IMG/VR virus record: IMGVR_UViG_2671180417_000012
Coordinates: 1 to 6,996 of that record
Direction: 5' to 3' (one strand)
Source: a virus
Lineage: Duplodnaviria; Heunggongvirae; Uroviricota; Caudoviricetes
Length of the DNA stretch: 6,996 nucleotides
The notes below the pieces were generated by a model. That model worked only from the letters and a program-made list of their open reading frames with translations, made no database searches and was not told where the DNA came from. Positions 539 through 5,740 of the stretch are shown here, piece after piece (position 1 is the first letter of the stretch; every line of letters begins with the position of its first letter). The position numbers and the translations under genes are program-made.

Positions 539-757
539 TCAGTTTTCCTTATACGGATTAATTTTATTGTGCAGTGTGTTGAATGACGCCCATACCACGT
601 CGTTATACAATTCAGTAACTGGCTCAATTATTTTCCCGATTGCCCAGACAAAAATTAGAGGGGATATCGGTATCATCAATACGATAAACAGAATGAGAAA
701 CAAAAATTCTGTCGCCCTACTTTTTTGCGGATATTCTTTTCTGAATAATGTAGTCAT
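539..757 (-). CDS. small single-pass membrane protein (72 aa)
   Basis: ATG at 757-755. Charged N-terminus followed by one hydrophobic stretch (FLFLILFIVLMIPISPLIFVWAIG) and a polar C-terminal tail. Confidence 0.55.
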   Translation of the reverse strand: MTTLFRKEYPQKSRATEFLFLILFIVLMIPISPLIFVWAIGKIIEPVTELYNDVVWASFNTLHNKINPYKEN

Positions 758-789: not shown

Positions 790-1002
790 TTAATCGTTGT
801 GGTAACTCATGGCTTCATTTGCAGCATCAACCGGATCAACCTCCCACCAGCAATAATTTGGTGCGTTTCCTTCAGGTGTCCACGGTTCTAATTCATTTTT
901 TGCCACATTCTCGTCGCCAGTAATTTTAAAAATCTGCTCAGAGAATTTTTTCACCCACTCGTTATATTTTTCAGTGTTAATAATTTTCTGTGTATTTGAC
1001 AT
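790..1002 (-). CDS. hypothetical small protein (70 aa)
   Basis: ATG at 1002-1000 preceded by GGAGG with 7-nt spacing (reverse complement of 1003-1020). Acidic, Trp-rich C-terminal half. No motif recognised. Confidence 0.6.
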   Translation of the reverse strand: MSNTQKIINTEKYNEWVKKFSEQIFKITGDENVAKNELEPWTPEGNAPNYCWWEVDPVDAANEAMSYHND

Positions 1003-1107: not shown

Positions 1108-1530
1108 TCACAACAGCACCTTCTGAAAATTACCCTGATAGAAAGCCAGTACACGCTGCATAGCTTCGCTCTTCCGGCACTCGCTACAGATTATGTTTTG
1201 ACGCCTGTCGTAGCGGCGTATTTCTCCGTCTGGTAATGGCCAGATAAGGTCAGGATCAACCACAGATGGTTTCTTCAGATTTGCCCTTGAGAGTTTTTTG
1301 CGGGCGTTTTGCCAGTCCTTACGCGCCTGTTCAGACGGGAATAACCCGTAACCAGAGTTGTATACATCGCCACTGGCAACCAGCTCTCTGGTGAGAACAC
1401 TCATCAGATATCTTGTCGCACCTGTCTTGGCTTCCAGTTGCCGCAACGTCTCGCGACCGCTCAGACGTACAAGTTCAACAACCTGCCCTTTAATTTTTTC
1501 CCGCTCTTCTTGTGTAAATACTTTTGCCAT
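1108..1530 (-). CDS. hypothetical protein with winged-helix-like N-terminal region (140 aa)
   Basis: ATG at 1530-1528 preceded by GGAGG with 5-nt spacing. The track's longer version begins at a TTG at 1545 that would abut the upstream stop; the ATG with SD is preferred. The segment ETLRQLEAKTGATRYLMSVLTRELVASGDV resembles an HTH/winged-helix motif. Confidence 0.65.
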   Translation of the reverse strand: MAKVFTQEEREKIKGQVVELVRLSGRETLRQLEAKTGATRYLMSVLTRELVASGDVYNSGYGLFPSEQARKDWQNARKKLSRANLKKPSVVDPDLIWPLPDGEIRRYDRRQNIICSECRKSEAMQRVLAFYQGNFQKVLL

Positions 1531-1545
1531 AAGCGCCTCCGGCAA

Positions 1546-2316
1546 TCACTTTTCCGATACAACACGGCGGGAAGAATCAGTAATCTGTCGAACAATATCC
1601 CGGTGCTTGTTCAGCTCCCGCAGCGCGGCGCAGACTCGCTCCCACTTCTGAACATCACTTTTCGCCCTGCGCAGCGCCAGGTTTGCCCTGCGAAGGGACG
1701 GAAAAATCAGCTCATCTGCTTGCGTTTCGGTAAACGATGGCAACGGCTGCACAATGTCCGCCACAGTTTCTGTTTTAATTTCTTCCTGTGTTGCGGCTTC
1801 CCGGACTGGTAACGCAGCACCTGCTGGCTGAGGAAAGGCCTTACCATCACTTTCCGTTACCAGCGCGGCTTTCGGCTCTGCTGGTAAATTATCGCCCGGC
1901 ATGCAGTAACGAAATTTACCGTTCTGATTAACGCGTGCCAGCCGCCCCGTTGCGGTTACCACCGCCAGCGTGGAAGCAACCTTGCGAGTACTGACACCGA
2001 ACTTACCCGCCAGTTCCTCACACGTTTTAGCCCCATCCTGACCGATAAACTCAATCATCATGTCTGCGGTAACTTTTTGTTCGACCTCCCCGGTCAGCAT
2101 ATCCTGTGCTTCAGATTTTACTGGCCGCTCTTCGGTTACCCGGGATTCACCTTCGCCAGCCAGAAACCAGGTGTGACCAGTTTTATCAACGACGCCTTTT
2201 CTTTTGAGTTCCCACAGCTCGTTGACAGCCTCTTCACGACTGATTCCAAGGCGAGCTGCCACCACATGTGAAGAGGCTTTTTTCAGTGCTTTCAGTGCGT
2301 CAGATACGGTTTCCAT
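1546..2316 (-). CDS. phage protein with two winged-helix-like segments (256 aa)
   Basis: ATG at 2316-2314 preceded by GGAGG with 8-nt spacing. Two HTH-like segments (AARLGISREEAVNELWELKRKGVV and CEELAGKFGVSTRKVASTLAVVTATGRLARV). Sits immediately downstream of the helicase-loader gene. Confidence 0.75.
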   Translation of the reverse strand: METVSDALKALKKASSHVVAARLGISREEAVNELWELKRKGVVDKTGHTWFLAGEGESRVTEERPVKSEAQDMLTGEVEQKVTADMMIEFIGQDGAKTCEELAGKFGVSTRKVASTLAVVTATGRLARVNQNGKFRYCMPGDNLPAEPKAALVTESDGKAFPQPAGAALPVREAATQEEIKTETVADIVQPLPSFTETQADELIFPSLRRANLALRRAKSDVQKWERVCAALRELNKHRDIVRQITDSSRRVVSEK

Positions 2317-2337
2317 TAAAATTTCCTCCGGACAAAA

Positions 2338-3084
2338 TTACTTCACAACCCTCATATTGCTGACATTTGGACGCCAGCTATCCCAGTTAAACGTCACCCA
2401 TCGACCACCGTTCATGGTCATGCGGTCCATAATCCTCTCACCAAGAAGCGTACTCATTGCGGCATGATTCAGGTTTGTTAACATCCCGACACTGCACAGT
2501 GATGCTGTCCGGCGATCAATTATCTGGTGCAATACCACCTGCTCGTTTTTCGTCTCCCGCTGAACGCCTATTTCATCCAGGACCAGCAAATCAACCCCGC
2601 AAAGCTCCTGTAAAAATTTTTCCCCGGATTTGCCGTTGTCGTAGCTGTCATGCAACACGCTCATGACGTCAGACACGGTGACGATAATCACGCTGCGCCC
2701 CTTCACCATCAGCCGGTTGCCCATCGCCGCTGCAAGGTGATTTTTCCCGGTGCCGGTTTTACCGCTGAACACAAAATTCGTGCACCCGGTCATCAGTTCG
2801 TCAGCTATGGATTTGGCCTGGCTCAGCGCGTATTTTTGCCCGTCGTTCTGCACCTGATAATTTGCAAACGAGCATTTGCTGTGCAGAGGCTGGATGCCCG
2901 AACGATTCAGGATTTTTTCCACCCGCAACTGGCGATTCTGGCGGTTAATCTCCTCGCTGCGTTTTCGTCCTTCAGCAAGTTGCCATTCCCGCCACTCCTC
3001 CACCGTCCGGTACGGTGGAACCGACCCCTGTGGTGCAAGTCTGCGAATACGTTCAAGAACCCCAACTGCCGCAATGTTTTTCAT
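2338..3084 (-). CDS. DnaC-like replicative helicase loader (AAA+ ATPase; phage P-position gene)
   Basis: Walker A FSGKTGTGKNHLAAA and Walker B DLLVLDEIGVQ, plus GMLTNLN, LLGERIMDRM and WVTFNWDSWR, match the motifs of E. coli DnaC as I remember them. Size and position correspond to ydaV of the K-12 Rac prophage. Confidence 0.92.
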   Translation of the reverse strand: MKNIAAVGVLERIRRLAPQGSVPPYRTVEEWREWQLAEGRKRSEEINRQNRQLRVEKILNRSGIQPLHSKCSFANYQVQNDGQKYALSQAKSIADELMTGCTNFVFSGKTGTGKNHLAAAMGNRLMVKGRSVIIVTVSDVMSVLHDSYDNGKSGEKFLQELCGVDLLVLDEIGVQRETKNEQVVLHQIIDRRTASLCSVGMLTNLNHAAMSTLLGERIMDRMTMNGGRWVTFNWDSWRPNVSNMRVVK

Positions 3085-3090
3085 GACACG

Positions 3091-4032
3091 TCACCCCCTG
3101 AATCCCGGCGGTATTTCAGTGTCCGGTTCAGAAATGTGATTCACGCAACGCTGCGCGGGCGAACGCCCCAGGCGGATAACCAGTTCATCCCATTTTTCCC
3201 GGAGTTTTGCCGGACTCATGATGTTTTTTACCCAGAACGAATCCCGCTGGAGACGCCCAAACATTTCACAAATTTGTCTGTGAGTTCTGCCATCCAGCAT
3301 CCGCATTGTCCGCACGTCATTGGCCCATGCAGTCCAGTTGGGTTCTTTCGGTCTCGTGATCTCGCCATCATCGCTGGCCGCCTGCTCGTAAAGACTCACG
3401 ATTCGTCCCCAGACCCACTGTGCGCACACCAAATCTTCCTGACTTCCCCACTGGCGTTTTTTTGCACTGAACACAACCGCGTCAGGGTGTCGGGTTAAAA
3501 AATTCTGTTCAGCCGTCTGCGGGTCCGGTTGCGAAGCGTCCGGACAAGAAGATCTTTTATCTGACGGATCGGGGTCAATCATCGCCCCCCTAATCGGCAG
3601 TTTGTTATCAACAGTTGATCCATCAAAATTTGACGGGTCAACCGTTGAGGGGGCAATATTTGACGGGTCAACTGTTAACGGGTCATTTTTTGCCGGGCTA
3701 ATTTTTCTTTTCGGTTTATATGACTCACGCGCCGCCGCAGCAGCTGCTTCGAGTTTTTCCACATTAAGCCGATAGATATTGCTTACATTACGCCCACCGA
3801 CCTTACGCTCTTCCTTCGTCAGCCAGCCCTCTTTCGCCAGTTCTGCAATAGCCGATTTCACTGTGGATTCACTTCTTGCACCGATCTGACGCCGGATAGT
3901 TTCAATGGCAGGCCATGACACGCCCTCGTCATTGCTGTAGTCTGCAAGACGGGCCATAACCGCCACCCTGGATAAGATCATGCCGGTGAAGGCGCACCCT
4001 TCCCAGACAAGACCATGAAGCTTGCTGCTCAT
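3091..4032 (-). CDS. replication initiator, lambda-O-like (N-terminal HTH; origin iterons inside the gene)
   Basis: ATG at 4032-4030 after a G-run (an alternative GTG at 4047 gives the track's 318 aa). N-terminal HTH-like segment (SWPAIETIRRQIGARSESTVKSAIAELAKEGWL). An internal peptide repeat (TVDPSNIAPSTVDPSNFDGSTVD) corresponds to DNA iterons. Sits directly upstream of the DnaC-like gene. Confidence 0.85.
   Translation of the reverse strand: MSSKLHGLVWEGCAFTGMILSRVAVMARLADYSNDEGVSWPAIETIRRQIGARSESTVKSAIAELAKEGWLTKEERKVGGRNVSNIYRLNVEKLEAAAAAARESYKPKRKISPAKNDPLTVDPSNIAPSTVDPSNFDGSTVDNKLPIRGAMIDPDPSDKRSSCPDASQPDPQTAEQNFLTRHPDAVVFSAKKRQWGSQEDLVCAQWVWGRIVSLYEQAASDDGEITRPKEPNWTAWANDVRTMRMLDGRTHRQICEMFGRLQRDSFWVKNIMSPAKLREKWDELVIRLGRSPAQRCVNHISEPDTEIPPGFRG
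3606..3725. repeat. putative replication origin: three iterons followed by an AT-rich tract
   Basis: Palindromic cores TCAACaGTTGA (about 3608-3618), TCAACcGTTGA (about 3638-3648) and TCAACtGTTaA (about 3668-3678). The last two sit in a longer repeat, ATTTGACGGGTCAAC. The run ttttttgccgggctaatttttcttttcggtttatat follows at 3686-3725. This is the lambda ori layout inside O. Confidence 0.6.
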
Positions 4033-4054
4033 AAAACCCCCGAACACCGTGCTT

Positions 4055-4480
4055 TTAGTGCATCACCACAGCATTCCCTGCCGGGCCGCCGCGATTCATC
4101 TGGTCATACAAAACAACCGCTGACGCAACAAAATCATCGACATCCTTCACCAGCCGATCCCTCCGTTCGACGATCTCACGGTAATATTCAGAACTGTGGC
4201 TGCGCATACGGGCCACCAGCAAAGGCGGCATCGCCTTTTCGATCGCCGGTAACAGAGCCTGCATTTTTTCAACAGCATCAGGGGTGTCTTTCTCTACCCA
4301 GCGGAAAATTTTCTGGGTATTGCGAGCCAGGGCTTCCGGATGGCTGTCGTCATACAGTTCCGGGAACGTCATTCCCAGCTCGAAATACGCTTTGGTAATT
4401 TTCGCAGCCGGTACTTTTTCGCCGTCCGGATGCGCCCAGACATTCATCGCCATGCGGATGTGTTCATGCTTGATTTTCAT
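4055..4480 (-). CDS. ydaT: YdaT-like protein (Rac-prophage family; CII-position gene)
   Basis: ATG at 4480-4478 overlaps the stop of the upstream Cro-like gene (ATGA overlap), with GGAG 7 nt upstream. The sequence (MKIKHEHIRMAMNVWAHPDGE...) matches my recollection of E. coli Rac YdaT; the 141-aa length fits. Confidence 0.85.
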   Translation of the reverse strand: MKIKHEHIRMAMNVWAHPDGEKVPAAKITKAYFELGMTFPELYDDSHPEALARNTQKIFRWVEKDTPDAVEKMQALLPAIEKAMPPLLVARMRSHSSEYYREIVERRDRLVKDVDDFVASAVVLYDQMNRGGPAGNAVVMH

Positions 4481-4779
4481 GAATCAACTCCATCAGATAA
4501 GCATGCACTACAATCACCTTCAGCATGAACTACATGTGTTTGCCCCAAACGAATGCCGCTCGCATACTCAGGCCAAATAAGCTCCCAATCATGGGGTCGT
4601 AGCTCCGCCCTACTTACTTGGCCTTCCGTCGCAGATTCGATCATAAGGGCGCGGGTTGGAGATATAGCTGTTCGTCCAGACGCCATTTGCGATAAGTAAG
4701 ATGGCGATACACCAAGTCTGGCCGCGAATTTCTTAGCATCACCAACCCTTAATGATTTAATAAACTCTTTTAATGTCAT
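4477..4779 (-). CDS. ydaS: Cro-like HTH protein, YdaS family
   Basis: ATG at 4779-4777 with SD GAGGAAGG (reverse complement of 4782-4789). HTH segment AKKFAARLGVSPSYLSQMASGRTAISP. First gene of the minus operon, divergent from the regulator gene. Confidence 0.85.
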   Translation of the reverse strand: MTLKEFIKSLRVGDAKKFAARLGVSPSYLSQMASGRTAISPTRALMIESATEGQVSRAELRPHDWELIWPEYASGIRLGQTHVVHAEGDCSACLSDGVDS

Positions 4780-4876
4780 ACCTTCCTCGGTTTAGTGTTT
4801 TTTTGCGAGTTTAGTGTTTAATAAACCATTAAGTCAAGTATTTGCTTGTTTAGTGATTACTAAAGATAATTACCAC
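4780..4876. promoter_or_regulatory. divergent promoter/operator region (OR-like)
   Basis: Three direct repeats GTTTAGTG(T/A)TT at 4790-4800, 4809-4819 and 4848-4858. Plus-strand promoter: -35 TTGCTT (4842-4847), 17-nt spacer, -10 GATAAT (4865-4870), placing the start about at the ATG at 4877. Minus-strand promoter: -35 TTGACT (reverse complement of 4832-4837), 18-nt spacer, -10 TAAACT (reverse complement of 4808-4813). Confidence 0.6.
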
Positions 4877-5248
4877 ATGCAAAAAAAAGAAATTCGCCGT
4901 TTACGTCTCAAGGAGTGGTTTAAAGATAAAACTCTGCCACCCAAAGAGAAGAGCTACCTATCTCAACTAATGAGTGGGAGAGCCTCGTTTGGAGAAAAGG
5001 CTGCCAGAAGAATAGAGCAAACATACGGGATGCCGGAAGGGTATCTGGATGCGGAATACGCAGAACAACCGGGGGTTTCTCCACCACATGCAGGGTTAAC
5101 GTCTAATCAACTGGAATTATTGCAGATTTTTTCAGCCTTCCCTGAGGATGAGCAACGCCAGATAATCAGCGAGTTAAAGCAGAAAAAAGAATCAATGGAA
5201 GATCTCATAGCGAGATGGATTGCGGCGCAAAAATGCCGCCGCGCCTGA
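4877..5248 (+). CDS. paaR2: HTH transcriptional regulator (PaaR2-like; occupies the repressor position)
   Basis: ATG at 4877 with no SD, 7 nt after a GATAAT -10 (leaderless, like lambda cI from PRM). HTH segment SYLSQLMSGRASFGEKAARRIEQTYGM. The track's upstream GTG at 4814 would overlap the operators and is not preferred. The name is from memory of the O157:H7 paaR2-paaA2-parE2 locus. Confidence 0.8.
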   Translation: MQKKEIRRLRLKEWFKDKTLPPKEKSYLSQLMSGRASFGEKAARRIEQTYGMPEGYLDAEYAEQPGVSPPHAGLTSNQLELLQIFSAFPEDEQRQIISELKQKKESMEDLIARWIAAQKCRRA

Positions 5249-5268: not shown

Positions 5269-5460
5269 ATGAATAGAGCCCTTTCACCAATGGTTTCTGA
5301 ATTTGAAACCATTGAACAAGAAAACAGTTACAACGAATGGCTGCGTGCGAAAGTAGCAACGAGCCTTGCAGATCCGCGCCCAGCAATTCCCCATGACGAA
5401 GTTGAGCGCAGAATGGCAGAACGCTTTGCTAAGATGCGCAAGGAACGGAGCAAGCAGTAA
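5269..5460 (+). CDS. paaA2: small antitoxin of a ParE-type toxin-antitoxin module (PaaA2-like, 63 aa)
   Basis: ATG at 5269 preceded by GGAGGA (5260-5265). 63-aa charged, helix-prone protein, immediately upstream of the ParE-like gene with a 1-nt gap (TAA 5458-5460, ATG 5462). The track's upstream start at 5215 overlaps the regulator gene and is not preferred. Confidence 0.8.
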   Translation: MNRALSPMVSEFETIEQENSYNEWLRAKVATSLADPRPAIPHDEVERRMAERFAKMRKERSKQ

Positions 5461-5461
5461 A

Positions 5462-5740
5462 ATGTTACCCGTGTTATGGCTTGAAAGCGCAGATACCGAC
5501 CTAGATGATATAACTAGTTATATTGCTCGTTTCGACATAGATGCGGCTGAACGCTTATGGCAGCGATTAAGGGGTTGTGTGCTGCCGTTATCCGAACATC
5601 CGTATTTATACCCACCAAGCGACAGAGTACCTGGCTTGCGTGAGATTGTAGCCCACCCTAACTATATAATTCTATACCGCGTAACAACATCAAGCGTTGA
5701 AGTAGTAAACGTGATCCACGCAAGACGCCAGTTTCCCTAA
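5462..5740 (+). CDS. parE2: ParE/RelE-superfamily toxin (ParE2-like, 92 aa)
   Basis: ATG at 5462 (MLPVLWLESADTD...). Size, composition and conserved C-terminal region (HPNYIILYRV...VEVVNVIHARRQFP) fit the ParE family. Operon partner of the small antitoxin. The track's longer start at 5366 would overlap the antitoxin by 95 nt. Confidence 0.85.
   Translation: MLPVLWLESADTDLDDITSYIARFDIDAAERLWQRLRGCVLPLSEHPYLYPPSDRVPGLREIVAHPNYIILYRVTTSSVEVVNVIHARRQFP

Follow-up and report, generated by a model that had tools for sequence, protein, structure and literature searches.

On the minus strand of the window (the whole 6,996-nt stretch of viral DNA that was analysed), genes for an O-like replication initiator and a DnaC-like helicase loader are followed by two further genes, laid out as below.

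3091-4047, minus strand: O-like replication initiator, 318 aa (phrog_391 'replication initiation O-like', E 3e-113; Pfam HTH_36)
3608-3697, inside the O-like initiator gene: five or six tandem 15-nt units, probable origin iterons
2338-3084, minus strand: DnaC-like helicase loader, 248 aa, counterpart of Rac YdaV; TAA stop at 2338-2340
2317-2337, minus strand: 21-nt spacer between the loader and 256-aa genes, with GGAGG at 2325-2329, read off the sequence
1546-2316, minus strand: 256-aa YdaW-family gene (Pfam DUF1627, phrog_630); ATG at 2314-2316, TGA stop at 1546-1548
1531-1545, minus strand: 15-nt intergenic spacer, TTGCCGGAGGCGCTT on the coding strand, with GGAGG at 1536-1540, 5 nt before the ATG
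1108-1530, minus strand: 140-aa LygF-family gene (Pfam DUF977, phrog_142 'Ren-like exclusion protein'); ATG at 1528-1530

The loader is identified by NCBIfam PRK12377 (506 bits, cut-off 389), phrog_50 'DnaC-like helicase loader' (E 8e-82) and Pfam IstB_IS21. An earlier note on this DNA had placed two open reading frames (ORFs) of these lengths right after the loader, with the upstream stop at 1546-1548 and an ATG at 1530, and the sequence agrees on each point. The note also had the genes abutting, with the Shine-Dalgarno GGAGG inside the last codons of the upstream gene; in fact the 15-nt spacer separates them, and the GGAGG lies in it, downstream of the stop. Its comparison of the site to the lambdoid nin region was imprecise, the match being to the position of lambda ren (the first gene after P) and not to nin proper. 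The same two genes are called by PGAP in a prophage of Escherichia coli ATCC 25922 that is 98.8% identical, where the DUF977 gene is a pseudogene. Both ORFs are real genes under purifying selection, the median dN/dS among relatives being 0.37 (256-aa gene) and 0.13 (140-aa gene).

The start of the 140-aa gene, as judged from sequence, is the ATG at 1530 and not the TTG at 1545, since homologues open with MAKVFT and the match to the Pfam DUF977 model already begins at residue 1. Among related loci, 129 have a 15-nt spacer and seven a 16-nt one, and because its length stays so constant, translational coupling of the pair by re-initiation is plausible. Programmed read-through was also considered, the ORFs being in frame with a single TGA between them, and was rejected because the 16-nt spacer of the seven loci breaks the frame. 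A 403-aa fusion of both proteins was found in one metagenome contig. Scanning of the coding strand gave no terminator-like site between the two genes and no promoter-like site belonging to either, and Rfam and tRNA scans of the window gave no RNA genes. From this layout we read the pair as accessory genes, co-transcribed within the rightward early operon of a lambdoid prophage akin to Rac. The accessory-gene option listed by the earlier note is supported, with winged-helix modules in genes that are co-transcribed after the loader.

The note had recognised no specific family, yet both proteins fall in catalogued ones (DUF1627/YdaW at E 1e-98; DUF977/LygF/phrog_142 at E 2e-30 and 5e-47). For the 256-aa protein, the match to PF07789 (DUF1627) has E 9.8e-99 and 328 bits (gathering cut-off 28.1), with model positions 1-155 of 155 aligned to residues 91-245; phrog_630 matches residues 1-252 (E 9e-133), and the protein cluster that is 100% identical to it has 983 members. 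Three modules can be delimited.

2161-2316, minus strand: first winged-helix-like module, residues 1-52 (AF2 helices 4-11, 16-23 and 27-39, then short strands; pLDDT ~70)
1897-2070, minus strand: second winged-helix module, residues 83-140 (AF2 helices 84-94, 99-106 and 110-122)
1549-1761, minus strand: conserved C-terminal module, residues 186-256 (IPSFTE..LIxP motif, then a long basic helix)

All three can be aligned across 38 relatives of 21-65% identity, and the AF2 secondary structure agrees with this DUF1627 architecture. In the first module W50 and L34 are invariant across the family; it gives sub-threshold matches to HTH_Crp_2 and the MntR N-terminus, and its profile gives weak matches in the PDB to DtxR-family, IclR and LexA winged helices (E 0.004-0.07). 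The second module is basic throughout the family (median net charge +4), and its family profile matches ADAR1 Z-alpha/beta (2e-4), AspA (7e-4) and ArsR/MarR proteins, while phrog_142 and phrog_1687 (MarR) match residues 83-137. The C-terminal module is conserved even among the relatives 21-65% identical, has a median net charge of +6 and is also found alone (phrog_1888, phrog_29124). AF2 models residues 199-255 of it as a single helix (57 residues), and its one PDB match is 3jqh (E 1e-3), which from the aligned repeats we take to be the coiled-coil neck repeat region of the C-type lectin CLEC4M. This basic helix probably forms a coiled coil.

The AF2 model of the whole 256-aa protein is poor (pLDDT 52), and the fold is therefore assigned mainly from weak profile matches. 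For the same reason a Foldseek search with this model is uninformative, its top matches being to tandem winged-helix proteins only at E of at least 0.036. With lower confidence, then, the protein is modelled as two winged-helix modules with acidic disordered linkers between and a basic tail helix. Whether its second winged helix might be a duplicate of that in DUF977 was considered and the idea set aside: BLASTP and hhalign were not significant, and only phrog_142 connects the two (E 3e-6). We treat the likeness as one of shared fold, a duplication being unproven.

The 140-aa protein matches PF06163 (DUF977) at E 2.1e-30 and 106 bits (gathering cut-off 22.1), with the entire model (1-134 of 134) aligned to residues 1-136. 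It matches phrog_142 at E 5.1e-47, and lambda Ren matches the same profile at 1.6e-41. Two parts stand out.

1333-1530, minus strand: winged-helix domain, residues 1-66 (AF2 helices 7-24, 29-36 and 40-53; strands 56-58 and 63-65)
1138-1197, minus strand: C-terminal Ren motif NIICSECRKSEAMQRVLAFY, residues 112-131 (BLASTP, hhalign)

Ten-residue block means of AF2 pLDDT are 83-92 across residues 11-60. With this model all top Foldseek matches contain winged helices (GntR, MarR, ArsR/SqrR, AspA, MotA; best E 2.6e-3), and those in the PDB and BFVD are generic winged-helix proteins only, none specific to Ren. Two winged-helix-like segments in the larger protein and one in the smaller, as the earlier note had proposed, are thus backed by both structure prediction and profile searches. 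The C-terminal motif shares 60% identity with residues 73-92 of lambda Ren (BLASTP E 9e-7; hhalign probability 88%), and C115 and C118 within it are invariant in 31 DUF977 sequences. The two proteins align end to end, with a gapped pairwise identity of ~27%. The sequence comparisons make the 140-aa protein a long-form homologue of lambda Ren, a relation whose strength lies only in the PHROG profile and the 20-residue motif. PDB sequence searches with both window proteins, lambda Ren and three family profiles found no solved relative, giving weak generic winged-helix and coiled-coil matches.

Winged helices invite the view that both are sequence-specific transcription factors, repressing or activating phage or host genes. 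The modules do have basic recognition regions and sub-threshold matches to MarR, ArsR, Crp, MntR, IclR and GntR, and K-12 YdaW figures in a list of E. coli transcription factors whose function is unknown (PMC9308461). We nevertheless think this unlikely. Every family match is under its curated cut-off for either protein, the best in bits (cut-off) being HTH_Crp_2 21 (27), HTH_11 16.7 (25), MntR 20 (153) and ArsR 16 (55), and neither protein has the domains for ligand binding or dimerisation that MarR, GntR and IclR regulators carry. A search of positions 1000-2340 found no repeated or palindromic operator-like site in or beside the genes, only short two-copy repeats of chance quality; targets could lie elsewhere. 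For lambda Ren, the homologue that has been characterised, neither bioRxiv 10.1101/2021.04.19.439022 nor PMC3640518 records a transcription phenotype. The more particular suggestion of late-gene regulators finds no support in either the operator search or the transcription-factor matches, and the two proteins are probably not such regulators.

Of complete E. coli genomes, 51-75% have matching DNA. The scan of species-representative genomes gave only three loci, and the family is therefore narrow and mostly of Escherichia. Both genes are extremely common in E. coli prophages, cryptic ones included. DUF977 lies 15 nt downstream in 76 of the 80 loci anchored on DUF1627, and only one gene of the pair is present in half of the phage records (12/24); since each gene can occur alone and the ATCC 25922 DUF977 gene is a pseudogene, the two proteins need not form a complex. 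The order can also differ: in one case a phrog_142 Ren-like gene directly precedes the DUF1627 gene (47% identical) and does not follow it, and HannyBb and 606R7 have a Ren-like gene right after the O-like gene. Among small genes beside distant DUF1627 homologues only one, at locus L172, is Ren-like. Conserved synteny with the DnaC-like gene, which the earlier note had put forward as a check, turns out not to be specific. DUF1627 is not tied to one loader, because it follows four kinds of replication module (DnaC-like, lambda-P-like, DnaB-type and O-only), and in two or three distant relatives it is preceded by a RecE-like exonuclease.

This distribution bears on whether the proteins could be structural accessory factors of replication initiation, organising or tethering the origin complex or modulating delivery of DnaB. 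In the window, as in most relatives, the genes do come directly after those for the initiator and loader; Ren has been called 'likely involved in DNA replication' and was assayed for two-hybrid interactions together with O and P (bioRxiv 10.1101/2021.04.19.439022); and one chimera (P0257) joins the N-terminal domain of an initiator (DUF1376) to the DUF1627 C-terminal module. The chimera may be a mere deletion fusion in a decaying prophage, however, and the variety of modules, or the RecE-like exonuclease, that precede DUF1627 argues against a specific initiation partner. Half of the phage records have one gene only. P lethality and replicative killing from ori-lambda work without Ren (PMC3640518). 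We doubt this explanation and regard it as improbable.

The exonuclease neighbours raise a different idea, that both are recombination accessory proteins working with a RecE-like exonuclease, DUF1627 sitting in the usual place of RecT. DUF1627 genes 28-36% identical to that of the window share 11 nt with the 3′ end of an Exonuc_VIII gene, and the annotation shows no annealing protein in the vicinity; PhiR46_1 has exonuclease VIII and then LygF directly; and the ATCC 25922 prophage has an 'exonuclease' gene and no recT within its annotated stretch. We find this idea very improbable. The proteins resemble no annealing-protein family; the gene of the window, like that of most relatives, follows replication genes at a distance from the exonuclease; and the adjacency could simply reflect mosaic shuffling of early genes.

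It is also very unlikely that the genes are morons of benefit to the host, which the prophage would express for superinfection exclusion or defence. In PHROGs, phrog_142 is classed as 'moron, auxiliary metabolic gene and host takeover', and the abundance of the genes in E. coli prophages, the cryptic ones too, would fit. PADLOC, however, gave no significant defence match (the 256-aa protein is marginal to the winged-helix part of CARF/Csa3, E ~1e-3; the 140-aa protein has none). The genes lie inside an early lytic operon that is repressed, the coding strand shows no promoter-like site belonging to them, and they would therefore not be expressed in the lysogen.

The explanation that we favour, tentatively and at a little under even confidence, is that the pair are ordinary early accessory genes (YdaW/DUF1627 and a long-form Ren), likely with a counter-exclusion role, and not late-gene regulators. 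The gene ren takes its name from resistance to Rex-dependent exclusion, a phenotype reportedly described by Toothman and Herskowitz in 1980. Like lambda Ren, both proteins would probably be dispensable for replication and would probably act early in lytic growth, as accessory factors that bind nucleic acid or protein; their likely role would be to shield the replicating phage from exclusion or abortive-infection systems, whether of the host or of resident prophages, or to condition it against them. Family assignments, folds and synteny in this account come from tool results, while the counter-exclusion role is based on homology to Ren and one overexpression screen. [quoted passage not shown] In the screen, K-12 ydaW scored as an overexpression blocker of the retron-Sen2 toxin RcaT, a single high-throughput hit in a preprint (bioRxiv 10.1101/2020.06.22.160242). 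A role specific to Rex is not evident here, because the prophage has a RelBE pair, and not rexAB, beside its repressor gene.

A bolder form of the counter-exclusion reading, which we consider distinctly unlikely, joins the YdaW-type and Ren-like proteins in a two-part counter-defence module that disarms abortive-infection systems such as Rex or retron-TA. It would act by masking phage replication or recombination intermediates, or by binding the sensors directly. If true, it would explain why the pair travels with any replication or RecE module, and would supply a mechanism for the long-unexplained Ren phenotype.

Both genes are already known, belonging to catalogued families labelled by PGAP and Pfam, and novelty is low. 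The gain is in annotation: the 140-aa protein, now 'DUF977/LygF', may be labelled a long-form lambda Ren homologue, and the 256-aa protein, now 'DUF1627/YdaW', a putative tandem winged-helix protein with a predicted basic coiled-coil tail. Both DUFs are abundant in E. coli, Shigella and Stx prophages, so that a small experiment could assign function and clarify Ren.

Among known systems, the MarR, ArsR/SmtB, GntR/YtrA, archaeal AspA and Z-alpha domains share the fold class of the window proteins, by prediction and weak profiles. The dimerisation and effector domains typical of small winged-helix regulators are absent from both proteins, and the tandem layout of the 256-aa protein, with long acidic linkers and a predicted basic coiled-coil tail, is unlike such regulators. 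The LygF name was first used in Salmonella Enteritidis Sdr I and now appears in many E. coli phage annotations. The window allele is typical, sharing 86-94% identity with hundreds of E. coli proteins of 140-141 aa that are annotated 'DUF977 family' or 'LygF'.

The closest counterpart in K-12 is the Rac prophage, where the order ydaS-ydaT-ydaU-ydaV-ydaW equals that of the Cro-like, CII-like, O-like, DnaC-like and DUF1627 genes of the window. Rac YdaW (b1361) is 55% identical to the 256-aa protein over residues 1-154, but it is a truncated protein of 186 aa with only the two winged-helix modules and no C-terminal module, whereas the window copy is full length. Rac has no DUF977 gene downstream of ydaW, since rzpR/rzoR are the next annotated features.

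Lambda ren directly follows P, starting at the P stop, at the end of the replication cluster in a pR-type operon; the 140-aa gene differs in being the second gene after the loader, with the DUF1627 gene intervening. Lambda Ren (96 aa) and the 140-aa protein have in common an N-terminal winged helix, a C-terminal ECRxSxxMxRVLAxY helix and a basic pI of about 9.8-9.9. The 140-aa protein has some 40 extra residues (about 61-100) not in lambda Ren, and a CxxC pair where lambda Ren has one Cys; it passes the Pfam DUF977 threshold, whereas lambda Ren gives no DUF977 match in a Pfam scan at E <= 1.

The genes of the early region all lie on the minus strand; their places in the order of transcription are given by number.

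4477-4779, minus strand, Cro/YdaS-like gene, first
4055-4480, minus strand, YdaT-like gene, second
3091-4047, minus strand, O-like initiator gene (318 aa), third
2338-3084, minus strand, DnaC-like loader gene (248 aa), fourth
1546-2316, minus strand, the 256-aa gene, fifth
1108-1530, minus strand, the 140-aa gene, sixth
790-1002, minus strand, small gene, following the 140-aa gene
539-757, minus strand, small gene for a 72-aa DUF4014 protein matching phrog_1832

The phrog_1832 label, 'released from the phage upon host infection', is odd for an early-region gene. At 3608-3697 the O-like gene holds a tandem array of 15-nt units, five or six in number, in which TCAACnGTTGAnGGG and TCAAAATTTGACGGG alternate; the array also makes a 33-nt imperfect inverted repeat and encodes the repeated peptide STVDPSN. 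The units are probably origin iterons, placed within the initiator gene as in lambda.

Both the 256-aa and 140-aa ORFs are real genes. The window is 98.8% identical to a prophage of E. coli ATCC 25922 that adjoins potC, and PGAP calls the same two genes there; the 983 sequences of one protein cluster are headed by an exact match to the 256-aa product; and among related loci the 256-aa gene has a median dN/dS of 0.37 and the 140-aa gene one of 0.13.

The coding strand at their junction reads ...GAA AAG TGA TTGCC GGAGG CGCTT ATG GCA AAA.... The earlier note placed the stop (1546-1548) and the ATG (1528-1530) correctly. It also had GGAGG inside the upstream gene and the genes abutting; they do not abut, because a 15-nt spacer bearing the GGAGG (1536-1540) follows the upstream stop. 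A similar spacer of 21 nt, with GGAGG at 2325-2329, lies between the loader gene and the 256-aa gene. Translational coupling of the pair is possible. We take ATG 1530 as the start of the 140-aa gene, not the in-frame upstream TTG 1545, since homologues open with MAKVFT and residue 1 is already included in the alignment to the Pfam model. The two ORFs share a reading frame with one TGA between them (window 1528-1548); a 403-aa fusion of both, encoded by a single metagenome contig (protein entry P0002), has GGA in place of the TGA. Programmed read-through of the TGA is unlikely, since the spacer is 16 nt long at seven related loci and the common frame is thus not a conserved feature. No terminator-like sites were found between the genes on the coding strand, and the single promoter-like site on that strand (853-882) is downstream of the pair; both are therefore co-transcribed with the replication genes.

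The earlier note recognised no family for either protein, wrongly, as both match families above cut-offs. The 256-aa protein belongs to Pfam DUF1627 (328 bits; cut-off 28.1), matches phrog_630 (E 9e-133) and is named 'YdaW family' in phage records. The 140-aa protein belongs to DUF977 (106 bits; cut-off 22.1), matches phrog_142, 'Ren-like exclusion protein' (E 5e-47), and is LygF or Ren-like in phage records. The lambda Ren sequence was taken from the lambda record and compared directly with it. Ren matches phrog_142 (E 1.6e-41), and its C-terminal NLVFKECRQSAAMKRVLAVY shares 60% identity with NIICSECRKSEAMQRVLAFY of the 140-aa protein (BLASTP E 9e-7; hhalign 88%). Save for an insertion of ~40 residues in the DUF977 form, the alignment of the two runs from end to end. 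By these matches the 140-aa protein is a long-form homologue of lambda Ren. A CxxC pair, C115/C118 (window 1177-1188), is invariant in 31 DUF977 sequences, and lambda Ren has its second cysteine alone; that the pair might form half of an intersubunit metal site is pure speculation. ATCC 25922 is the closest complete genome, and its DUF977/Ren-like gene (L001 6887-7309) is annotated as a pseudogene, interrupted by an internal stop; in the window the gene is intact.

The AF2 model of the 140-aa protein (mean pLDDT 70; ten-residue block means 83-92 over residues 11-60) has a canonical winged helix (helices 7-24, 29-36 and 40-53, strands 56-58 and 63-65), a basic helix (67-82), a low-confidence stretch (85-113) and C-terminal helices (116-139). 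All its top Foldseek matches have a winged helix, including GntR/YtrA, MarR, ArsR/SqrR, AspA, MotA and SelB, at modest E-values (best 2.6e-3). The model of the 256-aa protein is poor (pLDDT 52), with three-helix units at 4-39 and 84-122, disordered linkers and a long helix (199-255). In a diverse alignment of 39 DUF1627 sequences (21-65% identity to the window protein) exactly three modules are conserved, and the linkers are variable. The whole-family profile matches the PDB via the second module (ADAR1 Z-alpha/beta, 2e-4; AspA, 7e-4; then ArsR and MarR), the first-module profile gives weak winged-helix matches alone (E 0.004-0.07), and the sole match of the C-terminal module is the coiled-coil neck repeat region of the C-type lectin CLEC4M (3jqh). 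The second winged helix and the C-terminal helix are both basic throughout the family, with median net charges of +4 and +6; the linkers are acidic. The AF2, Foldseek and profile results thus support the two-plus-one winged helices claimed earlier, firmly for the one predicted in the 140-aa protein and moderately for the two in the 256-aa protein. Such folds, with regulators such as MarR among the matches, would suit sequence-specific transcription factors, a role for both proteins that we consider unlikely. In protein entry P0257 (313 aa) the N-terminal domain is that of a YdaU-type DUF1376 initiator and is joined to the DUF1627 C-terminal module. A deletion in a decaying prophage may have produced this fusion; alternatively, the chimera may hint that the module works with the replication machinery.

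Both families are narrow yet extremely abundant. Clusters at 50% identity that match the 256-aa protein number only 154 among 1.84 billion representatives; the 5426 complete genomes of E. coli include 2767 with DNA like the 256-aa gene and 4059 with DNA like the 140-aa gene, and a junction-spanning probe is covered at least 80% in 1978. Both genes belong to known prophage families that have been sampled in abundance and are functionally uncharacterised. Morons of benefit to the host could be spread in this way, an explanation that we rate as very improbable for these genes.

In IMG/VR, DUF977 lies 15 nt downstream in 76 of 80 DUF1627-anchored loci, and DUF1627 lies upstream in 61 of 78 DUF977-anchored loci; in a curated phage collection each gene is in 24 records, 12 with both and 12 with each alone. 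The partnership is frequent but non-obligatory. A lone DUF977 gene can directly follow an O-like gene without loader, or an exonuclease VIII gene. Distant DUF1627 homologues follow an IstB/DnaC-like loader, lambda-P-type loaders, a DnaB-type helicase or, with the pair order reversed, an O-like gene plus a phrog_142 Ren-like gene. Given such varied contexts, the association is with the end of an early block of replication or recombination genes and not with the DnaC-like loader as such; nor is the position that of the nin region proper, being instead that of lambda ren. In two or three cases a RecE-like Exonuc_VIII gene is overlapped at its end by a distant DUF1627 homologue, from which both proteins might be thought partners of RecE-like exonucleases; this is very unlikely. 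The overlap with the Exonuc_VIII 3′ end is 11 nt, in the usual place of recT, and in PhiR46_1 the DUF977 gene, not DUF1627, is at the exonuclease VIII gene end. No annealing protein is annotated near these loci of relatives (L169 1777-4756; L171 2026-4768; L179 2-1544; L006 2902-3920). The ATCC 25922 prophage has an 'exonuclease' gene, and recT is absent from its annotated stretch.

We tentatively favour a reading that falls just short of probable, in which both proteins would be dispensable early accessory factors, with nucleic acid or protein as binding partners, and would shield the replicating phage from exclusion or abortive-infection systems or condition it against them. It is drawn from a thin literature on Ren, YdaW and DUF977. 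Classically, ren mutants are sensitive to Rex exclusion. Ren-Rex interactions were found by two-hybrid (bioRxiv 10.1101/2021.04.19.439022), and a yeast two-hybrid map has a RexB-Ren interaction too (PMC3224144). In a genome-wide screen, K-12 ydaW scored as blocking the retron-Sen2 toxin RcaT when overexpressed (bioRxiv 10.1101/2020.06.22.160242), and Fic domains fused to the DUF977 winged helix also exist (PMC2686095). A role as replication-initiation accessory factors is another reading for both, lambda ren being transcribed with O and P and described as 'likely involved in DNA replication' (bioRxiv 10.1101/2021.04.19.439022); P-lethality and replicative killing occur without need for Ren (PMC3640518), and we find this role improbable. 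Against the favoured counter-exclusion role stand the presence of RelBE, not rexAB, beside the prophage's repressor gene, a PADLOC search without a match, the single screen hit behind the retron-Sen2 result and the ATCC 25922 pseudogene.

The forward-looking value is limited to the tie with Ren and the retron hint for YdaW, as leads on a possible counter-defence role. YdaW of the K-12 Rac prophage is 55% identical to the 256-aa protein across residues 1-154 and is truncated, without the C-terminal module; the Rac order ydaS-ydaT-ydaU-ydaV-ydaW is that of the window. The cI-like repressor gene (4814-5248) is followed directly by genes for a RelB-like antitoxin (5269-5460, plus strand) and a RelE/ParE-like toxin (5462-5740, plus strand), annotated likewise in ATCC 25922; this is the position that rexA and rexB occupy in lambda.
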